Notes: a model not told the origin generated them from the sequence alone. DNA of 64,000 bases from Fidelibacterota bacterium (GCA_041645495.1 JBAZPZ010000003.1:849-64848), one strand, 5' to 3'; positions 1 through 9,886 are shown, numbered from the stretch's first letter. Numbers and translations: made by a program.

Positions 1-503
1 TTCATGTCGGGTAGTCTGGAACATGCTTCAATGATTTTTCCTTCATTGGCTTTGAATTCTTCACGCCATTTTTCATAATAAACATCTAAAGCCCCGTCTT
101 TTGTATGCAGCGCATTTCTCACCTGCGAATCATAGATTAGAACCGGATGTTTGATTTTAATCCAAAGAAACTTTGTCGTAAGCGACAGAAGGTTTTTATT
201 TCCATACTTGACGGATATTCTTCTTTCAATTTCACGTATTTCTTTAACGGGGTCATCCTTAAAGTCGTCTGGTTTTAGAGGATCGATGATGTCCAAAACC
301 GGTTCGTATCGAGCAAGCGCTCTCTTTTCGTCGTATATTGAAGGTAAATTTCTCGCTACTCTATAAAAGCCACCGGCATTCTTTAATGCTTTTAGTTTTT
401 CACTCCTATTTCCATTAGATAATGCCTCACAGTACCCCATGTCATACATGAGCCACTGATTTAGATAAAGTAGCGAGCAATATTCAAAAGTTTTGGTTGC
501 CAC
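1..503 (-). CDS. Partial paralog (C-terminus runs off the window start) of the 207-aa hypothetical protein at 6753-7376; probable GTG start at 503
   Basis: Positions 3-510 align at about 93% nucleotide identity with 6877-7380, with no indels inside the coding part. The reading frame stays open on the minus strand. The ATG of copy B corresponds to GTG here. Not in the ORF track because there is no in-window stop. Confidence 0.5.
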   Translation of the reverse strand, partial: MATKTFEYCSLLYLNQWLMYDMGYCEALSNGNRSEKLKALKNAGGFYRVARNLPSIYDEKRALARYEPVLDIIDPLKPDDFKDDPVKEIREIERRISVKYGNKNLLSLTTKFLWIKIKHPVLIYDSQVRNALHTKDGALDVYYEKWREEFKANEGKIIEACSRLPDM

Positions 504-540
504 ATCTTGCTTCAATTTTTTCTCCTCCGAAATCCCTTAT

Positions 541-630
541 CATAATGCTATGAATTTATTCCCAAACAATTCTTTTATCAAGACACTTTTAACCTTCAGA
601 AGGTTAGAAACCTTCTGAAGGTTTTAACAC
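541..630. repeat. R element copy 1: ~90-bp intergenic repeat with two tandem 15-bp palindromes, AACCTTCAGAAGGTT at 591-605 and AACCTTCTGAAGGTT at 609-623
   Basis: Direct sequence match to 9790-9880 (about 85-90% identity). The two palindromes are mutual reverse complements, forming a perfect 15-bp stem with a 3-nt loop. The element lies in the divergent region between the 207-aa paralog (start 503, minus) and thrA (start 713, plus). Confidence 0.6.
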
Positions 631-712
631 TCTTGGCAGGTTCGGGAAAATATCGTATTTTTCGTCGGATCGATTTTATTGAGCATTTGACACACAGACT
701 GAAAGTTAGAGT

Positions 713-5462: not shown

Positions 5463-5687
5463 CTTACTGAATTGTTATGTGGTGCCGAACCGGAAGTCAT
5501 GACGCTCGCCAAATCTCATGGCAGCGGTGTCCAACTCGGCGCGGAAATCGTCGACAAATGCCGCGCCCAAAACCTGCTGATCAACTGCACGCACCAAACC
5601 GTTCTGCGCCTCATGCCCGCCATCAATGTCACCAAAGAGCAGATCGACCGCGCAGTCGCGATCATCGGCAAGGCGTTGGAAGAATAA
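5463..5687 (+). pseudogene. 3-prime remnant (about 74 codons) of a class-III aminotransferase gene (ArgD / acetylornithine aminotransferase-like)
   Basis: The translation (QLGAEIVDKCRAQNLLINCTHQTVLRLMPAINVTKEQIDRAVAIIGKALEE) matches the extreme C-terminus of ArgD/GabT-type aminotransferases. The frame is closed by TGA at 5460-5462, only 20 nt after the thrC stop, so about 330 N-terminal codons are missing. Confidence 0.6.
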
Positions 5688-5734: not shown

Positions 5735-6817
5735 TTACTTTATCTTCGTCAATAGCCAATCTGTCAATCCAAATTCAACTATCATTTTTGCCAGCCGTTT
5801 TGGTAAAATAAGTTCAATGTCTTCGTATTTGGTGTTTTTAAATTCAGCAAGAGTTTTGTCAGGGCTATGAACTACGAAATATAGTTTTCTAAATATACCA
5901 TGTGAAAACTCTTGAGCATATTTTTCAAATTCATCCACAGTTGCTCTGGATTTGACTTGTACCTGATACTTATCCTCTGTTATTGGCTCAACCAATTCCA
6001 TATCGACATATTTCATTACTTCCCCTAAAAGACTGACTCGACGCCAACCAGCATTTCGAAATATCAAATCAACCAAAGTCTCAAAATCTTTCCAGTGTAA
6101 TTGCTCCAATCCCATCGCAACTTCCGTTATCAGTTTTGCTTTATTTCGAGAGATCGATTTGAAAGCATTGCTTGGTTTATCATTTATAAGTCTTCTCAAC
6201 GTTTCAACTTCTGCTATTTCGCAAATTGTCCCTCGAAATCCCTGTACTTTCGCAATATTTCCAGGAATTTGACTAATCAATAAAGGCTTCCCTTTTATAT
6301 CATGATTATGCCATTCCCCCGAAAGCAAACGGTACACTGATATTTCATCCTTAAAGATACCTTTTTTACCAAGACGACACCACCAAAGCTGACATTTATG
6401 GAAAGTTATCCAAATATCGTTTGATGCGGATTGAGTTATTTTTTTTAGGGCATTTATATCCATTGTCGCGACCCCGTCAGTTTTATACTCATGTCTATAT
6501 TTTATTTTGAGTGCGTCCCAATCTCCTCGATTGATTTCTTCGAGCGTCCAATTATTCCACCCAATTCGCGCTTTATTTTCTCTAATGCTAGATGTTTCCC
6601 ATTCTCCTCCTCTACCCAGTTTGATGTAGTAGGCTTTCGTAAATTTTTCCGTTTTCATTTCAGTACCGTCCTTTAAAGATAAGCCTTCTTTTGTCTTTAT
6701 CGCTCGTTTTATATCAGTGGCGTAGCCTTGCAGAATCTGCCGGATGTTATTGTTAAGCACTGTTACCTTTGTTCCAAAGATAAATATCAAAAACTCTTTC
6801 ATGAAACCATGTTTCAT
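5735..6817 (-). CDS. Two-domain protein: unknown N-terminal domain (about 210 aa) fused to a C-terminal Mrr-type PD-(D/E)xK nuclease domain
   Basis: 360 aa. The C-terminal segment WKDFETLVDLIFRNAGW...YVDMELVEP...KYQVQVKS fits the Mrr_cat pattern (FE-LV-L, a D..E block, then a QVK lysine). The N-terminal region (AYYIKLGRGGEWE..ARIGW) was not recognised. The start overlaps the stop of the upstream 207-aa gene by 65 nt, so the two are co-transcribed; the alternative start MKEFLIF at 6802 still overlaps. Confidence 0.55.
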   Translation of the reverse strand: MKHGFMKEFLIFIFGTKVTVLNNNIRQILQGYATDIKRAIKTKEGLSLKDGTEMKTEKFTKAYYIKLGRGGEWETSSIRENKARIGWNNWTLEEINRGDWDALKIKYRHEYKTDGVATMDINALKKITQSASNDIWITFHKCQLWWCRLGKKGIFKDEISVYRLLSGEWHNHDIKGKPLLISQIPGNIAKVQGFRGTICEIAEVETLRRLINDKPSNAFKSISRNKAKLITEVAMGLEQLHWKDFETLVDLIFRNAGWRRVSLLGEVMKYVDMELVEPITEDKYQVQVKSRATVDEFEKYAQEFSHGIFRKLYFVVHSPDKTLAEFKNTKYEDIELILPKRLAKMIVEFGLTDWLLTKIK

Positions 6818-7376
6818 TTGATATCTCCCGAATATATTCTTCTGTTCCGACCTCCTGATTCACCGCATACTTATTCATCTCGGGTAGTCTGGAACATACT
6901 TCAATGATTTTTCCTTCATTGGCTTTGAATTCTTCACGCCATTTTTCATAATAAGCATCTAAAGCCCCGTCTTTTGTATGCAGCGCACTTCTCACCTGTG
7001 AATCATAGATTAGAATCGGATGCTTGATTTTAATCCAAAGAAACTTTGTCGTAAGCGACAGAAGGTTTTTATTTCCATACTTGGCGGATATACTTCTTTC
7101 AATTTCACGTATTTCTTTAACGGGGTCATCCTTAAAGTTGTCTGGTTTTAGAGGGTCGATAATGTCCAAAACCGGTGCGTATCTATCAAGCCCTTTCTTT
7201 TCGTCGTATTCCGAAGGTAAATTTCTCGCTACTCTATAAAAGCCACCGGCATTTTTTAATGCAGTCAGTTTTTCACTCTTGTTGCCATTAGATAATGCCT
7301 GACAGTAACCCATGTCATAGATGAGCCACTGATTTAGATAATAGAGCGAGCAATATTCAAAAGTTTTGATTGCCAT
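6753..7376 (-). CDS. Hypothetical protein (207 aa), first gene of the two-gene module with the Mrr-like nuclease
   Basis: Clean ORF with a Shine-Dalgarno (AAGGAGAGGT) 0-3 nt before the ATG, immediately downstream of the attC1 R-prime core. No transmembrane segment and no recognisable family. A paralog sits at 1-503. Confidence 0.6.
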   Translation of the reverse strand: MAIKTFEYCSLYYLNQWLIYDMGYCQALSNGNKSEKLTALKNAGGFYRVARNLPSEYDEKKGLDRYAPVLDIIDPLKPDNFKDDPVKEIREIERSISAKYGNKNLLSLTTKFLWIKIKHPILIYDSQVRSALHTKDGALDAYYEKWREEFKANEGKIIEVCSRLPEMNKYAVNQEVGTEEYIREISNETWFHERVFDIYLWNKGNSA

Positions 7377-7389
7377 ACCTCTCCTTGAT

Positions 7390-7452
7390 ACCTAACGCAA
7401 CGCCTCTCGGGGCGCGAGGAACGAGCGCTCCTTTTGCAGGCGCTTGTTAGGT
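7390..7452 (-). other. Integron-type attC recombination site (attC1, 63 bp)
   Basis: Read in the cassette (minus) direction: R-double-prime ACCTAAC (fits RYYYAAC and contains the TAA stop of ORF172), L-double-prime AAGCGCC, an imperfect inner palindrome, L-prime GGCGTTGC, and R-prime GTTAGGT (fits GTTRRRY). It is followed by SD + ATG of the next ORF. The complement of R-double-prime equals the TTAGGT found at the 5-prime edge of its own cassette. Confidence 0.6.
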
Positions 7453-7965
7453 GATTTTAAGTTGATAAATCTTGCATCCATACTGAGTGCGGCGAAAAAA
7501 AGCATAAATGGGAGGCAATGCCTTAGGTGTGACAAAGCCACCCTGTGAGAGGTTGATGTTATTGATTTGACTGTGGCGTCCGAATAGGCAAAGGAATGAC
7601 TGTGAATTAGTATACTTTTTCTGGAAAGCGGCTAACTTTTTATAATCAAGATTCACATCAAGCGTATTGATCCGCTTTCTAGGCCATTTAACTTCTAATG
7701 CGAAGTGGTATCGTTCCTTCTTTGCCACGAAATCAATCCTTTTATGGCCAACACTTCCCTCGTTTGGAAGAAAGCCCTTACAAGAAACCTCGCATTTAAC
7801 ATCGTATTTGCGAATCAAGAGTACGCGAAGAATAGACTCATACAATTGGTATTCGGTGAAAGCTATATTCGCGTCGCAAGCAGCAAGATAGCTGATATGC
7901 CCTGCCAAGGCCCGTTGAATGCGAAATAGTGATTCGTATGGTTCGTCGAGTTCACGCTTCCTCAT
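7447..7965 (-). CDS. Hypothetical protein (172 aa), possible PD-(D/E)xK-fold nuclease, alone in its cassette
   Basis: ORF with SD (AAGGAGATTAGATA) + ATG directly after the GTTAGGT core of attC2. The stop codon is embedded in the R-double-prime core of attC1. The segment RIDFVAKKERYHFALEVKW resembles a D..E-x-K nuclease motif. This is a weak inference. Confidence 0.5.
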   Translation of the reverse strand: MRKRELDEPYESLFRIQRALAGHISYLAACDANIAFTEYQLYESILRVLLIRKYDVKCEVSCKGFLPNEGSVGHKRIDFVAKKERYHFALEVKWPRKRINTLDVNLDYKKLAAFQKKYTNSQSFLCLFGRHSQINNINLSQGGFVTPKALPPIYAFFRRTQYGCKIYQLKIT

Positions 7966-7983: not shown

Positions 7984-8041
7984 ACCTAACGCTGCGGCTC
8001 AGCGGCGGCGGAACGCCGTCCGCTGTAGCCGATTGTTGGGG
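7984..8041 (-). other. Integron-type attC recombination site (attC2, 58 bp)
   Basis: Cassette direction: R-double-prime CCCCAAC (8041-8035), inner imperfect palindrome AATCGGCTACAGCGG...CCGCCGCTGAGCCGCAGC, and R-prime GTTAGGT (7990-7984). It lies 9 nt after the HNH gene stop and 18 nt before the ORF172 ATG. Confidence 0.55.
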
Positions 8042-8049
8042 CTTCTCTT

Positions 8050-8772
8050 TCAAAGATTTCGCTCGATGATTTTCTTCACGTAGGCGGGCATTTCCTGCTG
8101 AAGAGCTTCCGTCTTCTTTTTCAATTTGTCATAAACTTCAACTTCAGCACCAGTCCACATGATGTCTAGTCGACGGGCTGAGCGCATGGCAATGTGTGCA
8201 TAATCCTCAGGGTAAGCCCAGTAGCATGAACGACAGATGTTGGAGTCTTTCTGCTCAAGCCAATTTGCACAATGCTCGCAAGACCAGGACTTCGCGCGAT
8301 TTGCCGAACCGCAGAGCAACATGAAGTCTTCTGGCTTCTGCTTTCCCTCGCCCATATCCCCCGCAACCTCAAAAGGGATACGATGGTCAATCTGCAGCTC
8401 ACGTTCGTCGAATGGTTCAAGATAAACAGCGCACCGCGAACCGTGCTTTTCGATTAAGGCTTGTTTCAGTTCCTTTGTGAAAGCCGTGCGCCCGATCAGT
8501 TTTCCGAATCGGGACTTACTTGGATCACCGAAGCGATATGCGGCGATCTTGCGCCCATCTGCGCCTTCCACCCTGTACATCTCAATTGGGATGCCGTTCT
8601 CTTTGACGTCGCGGACGGCACGTGGGGGATGATTGTAGCCGTATTTGTCCTTCAACTCCTGTGTGGTTATGAATCCATGCTTGAGAATGTGGTCAATAAC
8701 AGTCCGAGGACGCTTTGCCGTGACCTTCTTGCACAGCCGTATGAATTCTTTGGGAAGTTGCGGTTTCGTCAT
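8050..8772 (-). CDS. HNH-family restriction endonuclease (type II R-M, R subunit)
   Basis: 240 aa. HNH core LQIDHRIPFEVAGD ... LLCGSANRAKSWSCEHC with flanking Cys/His zinc ligands. The start overlaps the stop of the upstream methyltransferase (ATGA). Confidence 0.75.
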   Translation of the reverse strand: MTKPQLPKEFIRLCKKVTAKRPRTVIDHILKHGFITTQELKDKYGYNHPPRAVRDVKENGIPIEMYRVEGADGRKIAAYRFGDPSKSRFGKLIGRTAFTKELKQALIEKHGSRCAVYLEPFDERELQIDHRIPFEVAGDMGEGKQKPEDFMLLCGSANRAKSWSCEHCANWLEQKDSNICRSCYWAYPEDYAHIAMRSARRLDIMWTGAEVEVYDKLKKKTEALQQEMPAYVKKIIERNL

Positions 8773-9683
8773 GATCTCGTCTCAAAAAGGCACATTTGTT
8801 CGCTTTGCGGTAAGTGGTAGACAGTTTTTGATTCGATGAGTTCATCGGCAAGTGCTGGGGACAGGTAAAGAGATTCAACAGTCGCATCGTCCCTGCCCAG
8901 AAGGGTTGCTTGCGTAGATCGTCCGGCGTTCAACTCCATGTGCGAAAGGTTCAAGTGTTCGGGCAGGCGTACGCCATGAACTTTATTGCCGGTGCGCCCA
9001 TCGTAACTGACAATATATCGGATATGCCTGGCGTTGAGGTGCTCAAGAACTTCAACGAACTCACAAAACTGCACGCTAGCAAGATAACGAGTATCTCTAT
9101 TTCCACAGACGCCTTGATAAGGCGGATCCATATAAACCAAGTCGCCATCGCCTGCTCTCAGCACGGCATCACGGTAATTTGTAGAAGAAAATGATGTCTT
9201 GCCTTTCAGTAAATAGGACGCGCCACAAACCTGTTCGTGCATGGTCGCAGGCGTCGCTCCTCGCCGTCTGTTATCGGGGCTTTGGTTGAACTCGCCATTC
9301 GCGTTATACCGTACTGATGCTTTTACGCATCTGGCTAGAAGGTAGAGGAAGTAGTCTGGCCTTCCGGTAAGATTGAATTCATCCCGTATTTTGCGGTAAT
9401 AGGACTTAGGGTCGGCAAGTTGTTCTTTCCAAAGCGATTCGTACTCCTTGGCCAGTTTATCCGGTGTGTTGACAATAGCCCTCCAAAGGTCCACCAACGG
9501 CTTGTTCAGGTCGTTGATGTGAAATCGCTTGGCACGCCTGTGCGCAGCGGCGGCCAGCGAAATGGCGGCCGACCCAGCAAAAGGCTCATGCAGAGTCTCA
9601 ACACTAGCGGGGAAACATCGCAAGATGTCCCCGGCCAAGTTCCGCTTGCTTCCTTGGTATGGTATAGGATGAGGAACGTTCAT
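8769..9683 (-). CDS. N6-adenine DNA methyltransferase, Dam-like (D12 class)
   Basis: 304 aa. N-terminal PYQGSKR (AdoMet motif I of Dam-type methyltransferases) and catalytic VYMDPPYQG (DPPY motif IV). Paired with the HNH endonuclease. Confidence 0.8.
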   Translation of the reverse strand: MNVPHPIPYQGSKRNLAGDILRCFPASVETLHEPFAGSAAISLAAAAHRRAKRFHINDLNKPLVDLWRAIVNTPDKLAKEYESLWKEQLADPKSYYRKIRDEFNLTGRPDYFLYLLARCVKASVRYNANGEFNQSPDNRRRGATPATMHEQVCGASYLLKGKTSFSSTNYRDAVLRAGDGDLVYMDPPYQGVCGNRDTRYLASVQFCEFVEVLEHLNARHIRYIVSYDGRTGNKVHGVRLPEHLNLSHMELNAGRSTQATLLGRDDATVESLYLSPALADELIESKTVYHLPQSEQMCLFETRS

Positions 9684-9789
9684 ATCAGCACTCTATTCAA
9701 AAACCTGTCTTCTTTTCATGTCCTTCTCGTGCCCCAACATATGTTTATACCGCACACCTGACTCCGTTTTTTTCTCTTTTGAAAGCCCT

Positions 9790-9880
9790 CATCATGACGC
9801 CATCAATTTAGACTTAAACAATTCTTTTGTCAAGATACTCTCAACCTTCAGAAGGTTGAAAACCTTCTGAAGGTTTTACC
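9790..9880. repeat. R element copy 2: same ~90-bp repeat; palindromes at 9843-9857 and 9861-9875
   Basis: Matches 541-630. Lies 2-12 nt after the selB stop (9887) and about 170 nt upstream of the methyltransferase start (9683). Confidence 0.6.
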
Positions 9881-9886
9881 ATTCCT

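Follow-up and report, generated by a model that had tools for sequence, protein, structure and literature searches.

Sedentary chromosomal integrons, of which the superintegron of Vibrio is an example, hold paralogous cassettes within one genome. Cassettes are also said, in work by Loot et al. from 2024, to insert at non-classical genomic sites (attG). A cluster of attC sites lacking an integron-integrase is termed a CALIN (Cury et al. 2016, PMC4889954; IntegronFinder 2.0, PMC9024848), and such clusters can originate through intI loss, rearrangement or insertion at secondary sites (PMC4889954). Cassette reservoirs and their shuffling have been described (PMC11023631, PMC12614218), and many chromosomal cassettes encode defence systems (bioRxiv 10.1101/2024.07.02.601686).

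We analysed a stretch of 64,000 nucleotides, here called the window, from a Candidatus Neomarinimicrobiota MAG. It contains two copies of a gene for a 207-aa protein: copy A stands alone as a cassette upstream of thrA, outside any array, and copy B is the third unit of an array near selB (Table 1). The explanation that we prefer, with a probability of roughly 0.8, is that these are a paralogous pair of one integron-type cassette, with copy B in a CALIN, copy A alone behind a leader sequence named R, and the 3' parts of both subjected to gene conversion. A pair of this sort is a known kind of thing and an ordinary outcome of integron biology.

As in described CALINs, co-oriented promoterless ORFs are found here between imperfect palindromes of 58-63 nt with cores of the RYYYAAC / GTTRRRY type, the start of a cassette is the inverse of the R'' of its own attC, the stop codon falls within R'', the attC is shared by orthologous cassettes of other phyla, there is no nearby integrase and the cargo is of the accessory or defence type (RM and nuclease genes). 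The locus differs from them in that just two attC are intact, the attC of the 207-aa cassette being decayed in both copies and the last unit having none, in that copy A stands outside the array without a canonical 5' junction, and in that the head is formed by the repeated hairpin/promoter module R, with no recognisable intI, attI or Pc. With the Vibrio superintegron it shares the repetition of the same cassette in one genome, diverged yet intact, and position in relation to a promoter would be expected to set expression. Unlike there, copy A is 6.9 kb off, across the thrABC operon, fused to a duplicated promoter module and not re-inserted at attI or attC, and the divergence pattern indicates gene conversion. 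Insertion at attG sites is called to mind by a single cassette outside any integron, next to core genes and expressed from a local promoter (putative in the case of copy A), but the 5' junction of copy A lacks the G|TT crossover signature and the leader is missing. Two-gene nuclease defence modules, of the kind listed as PADLOC candidates, are resembled by copy B beside an Mrr_cat gene in an RM-bearing island; this adjacency is, however, unique to the locus, and the two genes are separate cassette-like units. No PADLOC model matched convincingly, the best being PDC-S02 (E = 0.0018), to the nuclease only.

Results

Two copies of the gene and their assembly context

By BLASTN, positions 1-502 of the window match 6874-7375 with 93.2% identity and no gaps. 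Codon by codon, 35 of 501 nt and 20 of 167 aa differ between copy A and copy B, 12 codons have a silent change only, and neither stops nor frameshifts are present. The match is beyond what chance can give. A previous inspection of the window, made without database searches and referred to below as the sequence-only reading, had recognised a second, diverged copy with an intact frame at about 93% identity, and both comparisons bear this out; the bounds it gave, 3-510 against 6877-7380, belong to a real match but are wrong by a few bases. The homology was also thought to stop exactly at the start codon, and it does end near it, within a few bases upstream.

The replacement of ATG by GTG reported for copy A is correct as an alignment, with ATG at 7376..7374 in copy B corresponding to GTG at 503..501. 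A better start for copy A is nevertheless an in-frame TTG (515..513), four codons 5' of the GTG and 6 nt after GGAGGAG (522-528). Since this GGAGGAG is correctly spaced 5' of it, the TTG, giving 211 aa, is more likely to be the start than the GTG, giving 207 aa; the NCBI annotation (MFA4838002.1, 211 aa) takes the TTG as well.

Through an exact look-up of the ThrA protein, three other assemblies of the same locus were obtained. Two of them extend to the left of the window, by 848 nt (JGI, L002) and by 574 nt (ENA, L001), and these two agree exactly with one another and with the window. The gene of copy A extends 120 nt beyond the left edge of the window and is whole in L002 (728..1363), where 37 of 624 nt differ from copy B over the entire gene. 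It is complete, with the same C-terminus as copy B, in two independent metagenome assemblies and in the NCBI record. The upstream extension that the sequence-only reading had proposed as a check found the frame complete and copy A not truncated. In L001, an independent contig of 8.8 kb, copy A, thrABC and copy B follow one another without a break and are identical to the window, so that the two copies share one molecule. Contigs from JGI and Logan independently connect R and thrA with copy A, or with its 5' end. Beyond copy A there are a 59-aa ORF and a 75-aa ORF, neither with a family match in Pfam, NCBIfam or PHROG, and all assemblies then break, within about 1 kb upstream. The 75/98-aa ORF was considered as the N-terminus of a transposase, for which Pfam, NCBIfam and PHROG gave no support.

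Table 1. Features around the two copies, with positions counted in the window
Feature	Position	Strand	Remarks
Copy A, 207-aa cassette gene	1..515	-	167 codons from GTG or 171 from TTG inside the window
R module before copy A	516..640	-	Shine-Dalgarno GGAGGAG 522-528; TTGATA 581..576, TAAATT 558..553, 17-nt spacer; hairpin 591-623
Class-III aminotransferase fragment	5472..5687	-	last ~46 codons alone match
Mrr_cat-domain gene	5735..6658	-	307 aa; last array unit; no attC after it
Decayed attC of cassette B	6699..6758	-	60 nt; R'' GCTTAAC over TAA stop; core R' GAGCGAT
Copy B, 207-aa cassette gene	6753..7376	-	MFA4838008.1
Copy B 5' leader	7377..7395	-	TTAGGT-ATCAAGGAGAGGT before ATG; absent from copy A
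attC1, of 172-aa cassette	7390..7452	-	63 nt, ACCTAAC...GTTAGGT
172-aa cassette ORF	7447..7965	-	preceded by G|TTAGGT; no assigned function
attC2, of RM cassette	7984..8041	-	R'' CCCCAAC; R' core GTTAGGT
HNH endonuclease, type II RM cassette	8050..8772	-	PADLOC REase_II 3e-60
D12/Dam methyltransferase, type II RM cassette	8769..9683	-	PADLOC MTase_II 2e-85
RM cassette start G|TTGGGG	9738..9732	-	GTTGGGG
R' module, second R copy	9753..9884	-	array head; ends 2 nt before selB stop codon

The repeated unit

Beyond the stop codon the copies stay similar for another 55-60 nt or so, as far as the 3' end of a decayed attC, where the similarity is lost. The remnant of copy A has GCTTAAC over the stop, as that of copy B does, and a core R' of GTTAGAT. 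Both remnants share about 75% identity with the intact attC sites that orthologous cassettes carry (L005, L006 and L079 among them), both have lost the inner stem, and as DNA they fold no better than shuffles; the 60-nt tail common to A and B is homologous to an attC but probably no longer functional. Behind close homologs, at the same position, an intact attC is present, GCCTAAC...GTTAGGC, 59-61 nt long and folding with -17 to -25 kcal/mol; the homologs concerned are those of Contendobacter (L005), Competibacteraceae (L006), Thiotrichales (L012) and a metagenome contig (L079, with homolog P0002). At the 5' end, the leader of copy B, G|TTAGGT-ATCAAGGAGAGGT-ATG, has the same layout as the P0002 leader, G|TTAGGC-ATCGAGGAGAGGC-ATG (compared in full, G|TTAGGTATCAAGGAGAGGT-ATG and G|TTAGGCATCGAGGAGAGGC-ATG). 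This promoterless leader, starting at a G|TTRRRY crossover, is present in copy B and replaced by R sequence in copy A. Because the repeat ends at the attC remnant and the leader of copy B corresponds to that of P0002, the repeated unit can be read as one integron gene cassette of about 690 nt, which would consist of the TTAGGT leader, a promoterless 207-aa ORF and a 60-nt attC over the stop codon.

The same organisation was seen at other loci of the family, often among its closer members. In L079 the 3' end of an attC (core R' GTTAGGC) precedes the gene and a 60-nt attC follows it. An attC over the stop codon was found in L005, L006, L012 and L032, the last with IntI fragments 120 nt upstream. 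L010 and L048 have attC both upstream and downstream of the gene, as does L011, where four more follow downstream; five attC of L011 lie on the same strand. Taken over all full-length genomic homologs, an attC at the stop codon occurs in about 8 of 55 (four by scan, the others being L010, L011, L012 and a cut attC in L007 recognised by eye), against 6 of 544 neighbouring ORFs. The remaining loci, about 47 of the 55 and mostly those of distant members, have no attC at the stop, and the 207-aa family is not exclusively cassette-borne. These sites were called by hand-made rules and not by the IntegronFinder covariance model, the rules being inverse cores R'' RYYYAAC and R' GTTRRRY around an imperfect palindrome of about 55-140 nt. 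A loosened version of the scanner returned 35 matches in the window, mostly in coding regions, and was dropped as non-specific.

The array around copy B

The R'' of attC2, CCCCAAC, is the exact inverse of the start of its own cassette (TTGGGG). In the same way the R'' of attC1, ACCTAAC, is the inverse of the start of the 172-aa cassette (TTAGGT), and the 172-aa ORF has its stop codon within it. The sequence-only reading had put attC1 before copy B, and an attC-like site is indeed there, at 7390-7452. As minus-strand DNA attC1 folds marginally better than shuffles (z = -1.3); the plus strand gave -28.8 kcal/mol with RNA parameters and without a shuffle control. The two sites are on the same strand, 0.5 kb apart, and the CALIN rule asks for at least two attC within 4 kb. 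With tblastn and an IntI1 query no integron-integrase was detected in the 64-kb window (best E = 8), and the same query detects IntI-like sequences in L032 and L034, which served as a positive control. Nor does the head of the array make a complete integron: intI is absent there, as from the whole 64-kb window, and the R' module, a hairpin followed by TTGACA-17-TAAATT, is found in its place, abutting selB. By the usual definition (PMC4889954, PMC9024848) we class the array as a CALIN; it comprises four units, with copy B third, between the truncated aminotransferase gene and selB. The GC content of the 207-aa and Mrr-like units is 37-39%, against 50-57% in adjoining core genes, and the cassette DNA appears to be of foreign origin.

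The R module

That copy A is preceded by R, as had been reported, was confirmed: positions 516-632 match 9768-9884, in the R' module, with 82% identity. The hairpin of R measures 33 nt with a perfect 15-bp stem, and that of R' is at 9843-9875. The hairpin arms, 15 nt each, are perfectly conserved between R and R', with z of -7.7 and -4.8 in comparison with shuffles. In both modules sigma70-like hexamers lie 3' of the hairpin on the minus strand, TTGATA or TTGACA, then 17 nt, then TAAATT; the promoter match of R' (TTGACA-17-TAAATT, 9833..9805) is among the top scorers (10 of 12) in the first 10 kb. Since promoter-like matches in the region are not enriched (15 found, 12 expected from shuffles), the one argument for a promoter in R is that both hexamers are kept in R and R'. 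The R' module is within about 15 nt of the first cassette of the array; R directly adjoins the start codon of copy A and gives it its Shine-Dalgarno sequence. We infer that R is a shared promoter/boundary module of 120-130 nt in which a hairpin, a sigma70-like promoter and a Shine-Dalgarno sequence are combined; it might instead be an operator, a terminator or what is left of an attI site. R was also considered as an attC and this was rejected, its core sites not being attC-like. Nothing matched the exact hairpin pattern in two scans of the metagenome collection or in the viral collection, and no Rfam family was found in the first 10 kb.

No canonical G|TT crossover marks the 5' junction of copy A, and the leader is missing. 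Its insertion at R may therefore not be the work of an integrase, and an integrase may not have made the copy at all, since neither attC remnant folds stably.

Divergence of the copies

Over the whole gene, copies A and B have dN = 0.045 and dS = 0.125, hence dN/dS = 0.36. The sequence-only reading had taken the copies for diversifying paralogs and named dN/dS as a check; the value obtained and the position of the substitutions, which fall at columns variable in the family, speak against diversification. The mean column entropy of the 20 changed residues is 2.01 vs 1.22 (p = 2e-4), and all 23 invariant columns are kept in both copies, the start Met excepted. The contrast that had been pointed out on the antisense frame (SYRASALF against AYLSSPFF) has a real counterpart on the sense strand, five changes in residues 56-67, without being a sign of diversification: this is a variable surface loop, in a loop-rich stretch that includes the block of second-lowest model confidence. 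Both copies are intact and under purifying selection.

The clustering of the divergence is real, with 26 differences in the first 238 nt and 11 in the other 386 (p = 7e-5), and we agree with the earlier view that copy A is not a very recent duplicate. By segment, the identity of A and B is 88.9, 90.0, 97.5, 95.8 and 97.9%. For codons 2-80 dS is 0.247 and for codons 81-207 it is 0.054, the corresponding dN/dS being 0.33 and 0.43. When sites were polarised against five other alleles, the ratio of private to shared-derived sites was 26:12 in the first 240 nt and 11:41 in the rest (Fisher p = 1e-5). These patterns point to a mosaic history rather than to selection, because the clustering affects synonymous sites as well and because stronger constraint would reduce the private and the shared-derived classes together. 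The unevenness would most likely stem from gene conversion that followed an older duplication and made the copies alike in the 3' two-thirds and in the attC remnant.

The neighbouring Mrr-like gene

The sequence-only reading had suggested that a second complete module, perhaps with a nuclease of its own, may lie just upstream of the window. The extension, as far as the assemblies reach, shows copy A without an Mrr-like gene beside it, and the homology of A and B ends at the attC remnant. Proteins homologous to the Mrr-like one usually measure 307 aa, cover 85% of the annotated 360-aa ORF and begin at M54 (window 6658). With the start at M54 the Mrr-like gene does not overlap copy B, and the annotated overlap is an artefact of an over-extended gene model. 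A 38-codon 'stub' beside copy A, resembling the start of the 360-aa ORF, proved to be the end of the 207-aa gene, with the attC remnant, read in another frame. A tblastn search with the 360-aa ORF over all fetched loci found the Mrr-like gene adjoining 0 of 59 other homolog loci, with only out-of-frame echoes, and all-against-all clustering of 606 neighbouring ORFs from the 59 loci yielded no conserved neighbour. To judge from these comparisons, the Mrr-like gene is a stand-alone unit and not a partner of the 207-aa gene.

Discussion

Several other histories could be proposed for the two copies. They could be two alleles of the same cassette acquired independently from the environmental pool, recombination possibly taking place later, a scenario that would suit the wide circulation of the family as a cassette, the roughly 10% divergence of the 5' third, the unlike junction contexts (attC1 and R) and the fact that in its first 120 nt copy B is closer to P0002 (92.3%) than to copy A (88.9%). 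This last difference, however, amounts to just 9 against 13 differences in 117 nt. In the 3' two-thirds the identity of the two copies is about 97%, against at most 84% with the other compared alleles, except for P0002, which reaches 89% in the final segment; 53 states shared by A and B, 12 of them in the 5' third, are unanimously absent from the five other alleles, and a stem-breaking attC change, GGCAG for AGCGG, is common to both. Because of these 53 derived sites and the shared stem-breaking attC changes, independent acquisition, like replacement of the 5' segment, is less likely than gene conversion as the cause of the mosaic, and we regard it as unlikely also as an account of the pair. 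Somewhat less probable again is that a rearrangement left copy A behind as a functionless, decaying pseudogene. Neither the ATG nor the cassette leader is left in it, the attC is dead, its lineage-specific changes number 16 against 8 in copy B (9 against 4 of them non-synonymous), and its residues L12, K38, I56, A62 and V98 are never seen at those positions in 42 relatives. The asymmetry of 16 to 8 is nevertheless not significant (chi-square about 2.7), the ORF is open across all 207-211 codons with every invariant family residue but the start Met in place, dN/dS is below 1 in both halves of the gene, and a strong Shine-Dalgarno sequence, a correctly spaced TTG and a conserved promoter-like module precede it.

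Very improbable, in our estimate, are diversifying paralogs that each belong to a two-gene module with a nuclease, the second module lying just upstream, as the sequence-only reading would have it. What made this attractive is an Mrr_cat-domain gene directly after copy B, an annotated 360-aa ORF overlapping the 3' end of that copy with a 38-codon look-alike beside copy A, and several amino acid changes clustered in residues 56-67. But the overlap and the look-alike are frame artefacts once the nuclease starts at M54, the homology of the copies stops at the attC remnant, beyond copy A only the 59-aa and 75-aa ORFs without family match were found, the two families are paired in none of the 59 other loci, which have no conserved neighbour either, and the low dN/dS with changes at variable columns leaves little room for diversification. 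That two strain variants of one locus were joined into one contig by the assembly is a possibility so slight as to be negligible: copy A does lie near a contig end, with every assembly breaking within about 1 kb upstream, but the flanks of the two copies differ on both sides, the independent ENA contig holds both copies with thrABC between them in a sequence identical to the window, and the JGI and Logan contigs connect copy A or its 5' end with R and thrA independently.

Under the preferred reading, a paralogous pair of one cassette, an ancestral cassette whose attC was already weakened would have been copied within this lineage, and gene conversion would later have homogenised the 3' two-thirds of A and B. 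In copy A the leader has been replaced by a copy of R and the attC has decayed. Standing directly behind the R promoter, copy A would probably be the better expressed of the two; copy B would depend on read-through from the R' module, 2.4 kb upstream, in the manner of later integron cassettes. What appeared to be a nuclease-partner module can in this way be resolved as a duplicated integron cassette. The locus offers a clear case of attC-bounded cassettes (RM, nucleases and orphans) in the uncultured marine phylum Neomarinimicrobiota with no local integrase, and it may serve as a worked example of how cassette paralogs could persist past the decay of their attC, by joining a duplicated promoter module and through partial gene conversion. 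What remains of interest is the protein family, which is widely transferred, and the R module.

The 207-aa protein family

A word-index search gave 185 relatives of the 207-aa protein, and an exhaustive profile search 710 representatives at E <= 0.001 (clusters at 50% identity), nearly all of 200-220 aa and single-domain. Genomic matches come from many bacterial phyla and from MAGs labelled Halobacteria, Bathyarchaeia and Methanophagales. The AlphaFold model is all-alpha, with twelve helices (pLDDT 95, pTM 0.91). Foldseek found no structural match to it (best E = 0.6 in PDB and 1.1 in BFVD), the query, 44 members and distant relatives had no profile match in Pfam, NCBIfam, PHROGs or PADLOC, and a profile search against PDB sequences produced only spurious coiled-coil-like matches (E >= 0.004). 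A possible resemblance of the SxxSKFLW...P..IYD motif to proteins of the OGG fold received no support from NCBIfam and was dropped. N-terminal fusions occur in the family, to DUF6508 and to PriA 3'BD, the latter probably a gene-call fusion, and are uninformative.

The neighbours of family members vary and include ParDE and BrnT/CopG toxin-antitoxin pairs, an SLFN/AlbA_2 ATPase, an SduA_C-domain (Shedu-type) protein, a serine recombinase with ParA, and transposases. Because the family moves as a single gene through cassette arrays and through islands where RM, toxin-antitoxin and nuclease genes abound, and in view of the reports of defence genes in cassettes, a stand-alone accessory role of the defence or addiction type might be proposed, as a guess held with low confidence. 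It is doubtful, though conceivable, that the protein founds an undescribed single-gene accessory function with a novel fold, spread by cassettes in Bacteria and Archaea, and that R is a new type of integrase-independent 'expression head' by which cassettes are captured or driven in Neomarinimicrobiota. Compact, well conserved and orphan, the family is in any case a reasonable candidate for functional screening among cassette-borne genes. The sole neighbour to recur around its members was Bax1/DUF790, in four archaeal-type loci.

Gene models and possible control elements of the array

Public databases list the Mrr_cat protein at 360 aa (NCBI) or 355 aa (JGI/ENA). These gene models are 48-53 codons too long and overlap the 207-aa gene. 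Homologs, numbering more than 100, measure about 307 aa, and their alignment begins at M54 (window 6658). No family match was obtained for the 172-aa cassette protein. By eye only, it contains IDFVAKKERYHFALEVKW, which resembles the PD-(D/E)XK nuclease motif (D...E-x-K).

A 20-codon ORF, VRYKHMLGHEKDMKRRQVFE, occupies the interval separating R' from the methyltransferase gene; GGAG stands 6 nt upstream of it, and its stop lies 9 nt ahead of the methyltransferase ATG. Such an arrangement may provide a leader peptide, or translational coupling for the RM cassette. In the hairpins of the two repeated modules R and R' the arms are perfectly conserved, being AACCTTCAGAAGGTT and AACCTTCTGAAGGTT separated by 3 nt, and each arm is in itself a 7-1-7 palindrome. 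These arms could equally serve as two operators to which a dimeric regulator binds. Nothing matching the hairpin was found in the metagenome collection, the viral collection or Rfam.

Locations of the features discussed
Feature	Location	Strand	Remark
Hairpin of R	window 591-623
Hairpin of R'	window 9843-9875
Class-III aminotransferase fragment	window 5472-5687	+	Pfam Aminotran_3 positions 358-403 of 403
Mrr_cat protein, public gene model	window 5735-6817	-
172-aa cassette protein	window 7447-7965	-
20-codon ORF, GTG...TAG	window 9686-9749	-
Stretch beyond copy A	L002 (JGI contig) 1-370		window -848 to about -480
attC of the shared cassette	L006 8619-8678; L007 about 8619-8670
IntI1-like fragments	L032 3991-4122 and 7718-7882	same as cassette
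207-aa homolog + DUF790/Bax1-like gene	L031 7625-10191; L033 7562-10249; L044 1182-1472; L045 76-2132

Boundaries of the array and of the copy A locus

Immediately past thrC a class-III aminotransferase gene is reduced to its last ~46 codons; its truncation is the trace of a rearrangement where the cassette array ends on this side. To the left of the window, the copy A locus breaks off within about 0.6-1 kb in all three independent assemblies, just past a 75-aa ORF without a family assignment. The breakpoints probably coincide with a repeat, either an IS or further cassettes.

Homolog loci in other genomes

Two genomes carrying homologs of the 207-aa gene, L006 and L007, share one cassette with its attC as far as ...GATGTAAGGC and diverge completely beyond it, which indicates that one cassette was caught in two different downstream junctions; the L007 attC is cut at R'. 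In another locus, L032, two IntI1-like fragments (57% and 67% identity) lie about 3.6 kb apart. The one closer to the 207-aa homolog ends 120 nt ahead of it, and a 96-nt attC that folds very stably comes after the homolog. These fragments may represent an interrupted intI sharing the orientation of its cassettes.

Four archaeal-type loci associate the 207-aa homolog with a DUF790/Bax1-like gene, and the complete form of this gene (513-531 aa) is convergent with the homolog. Two of them, L031 and L033, also carry a 96-107-aa duplicate of the DUF790/Bax1-like C-terminus, which flanks the homolog on the side opposite the complete gene (67% nucleotide identity in L031; 81% over 198 nt in L033). 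Because the contigs end, L044 shows only the C-terminal fragment of the DUF790/Bax1-like gene and L045 only the full gene. The arrangement has the appearance of an insertion event in which the 3' end of the target gene was either duplicated or replaced.
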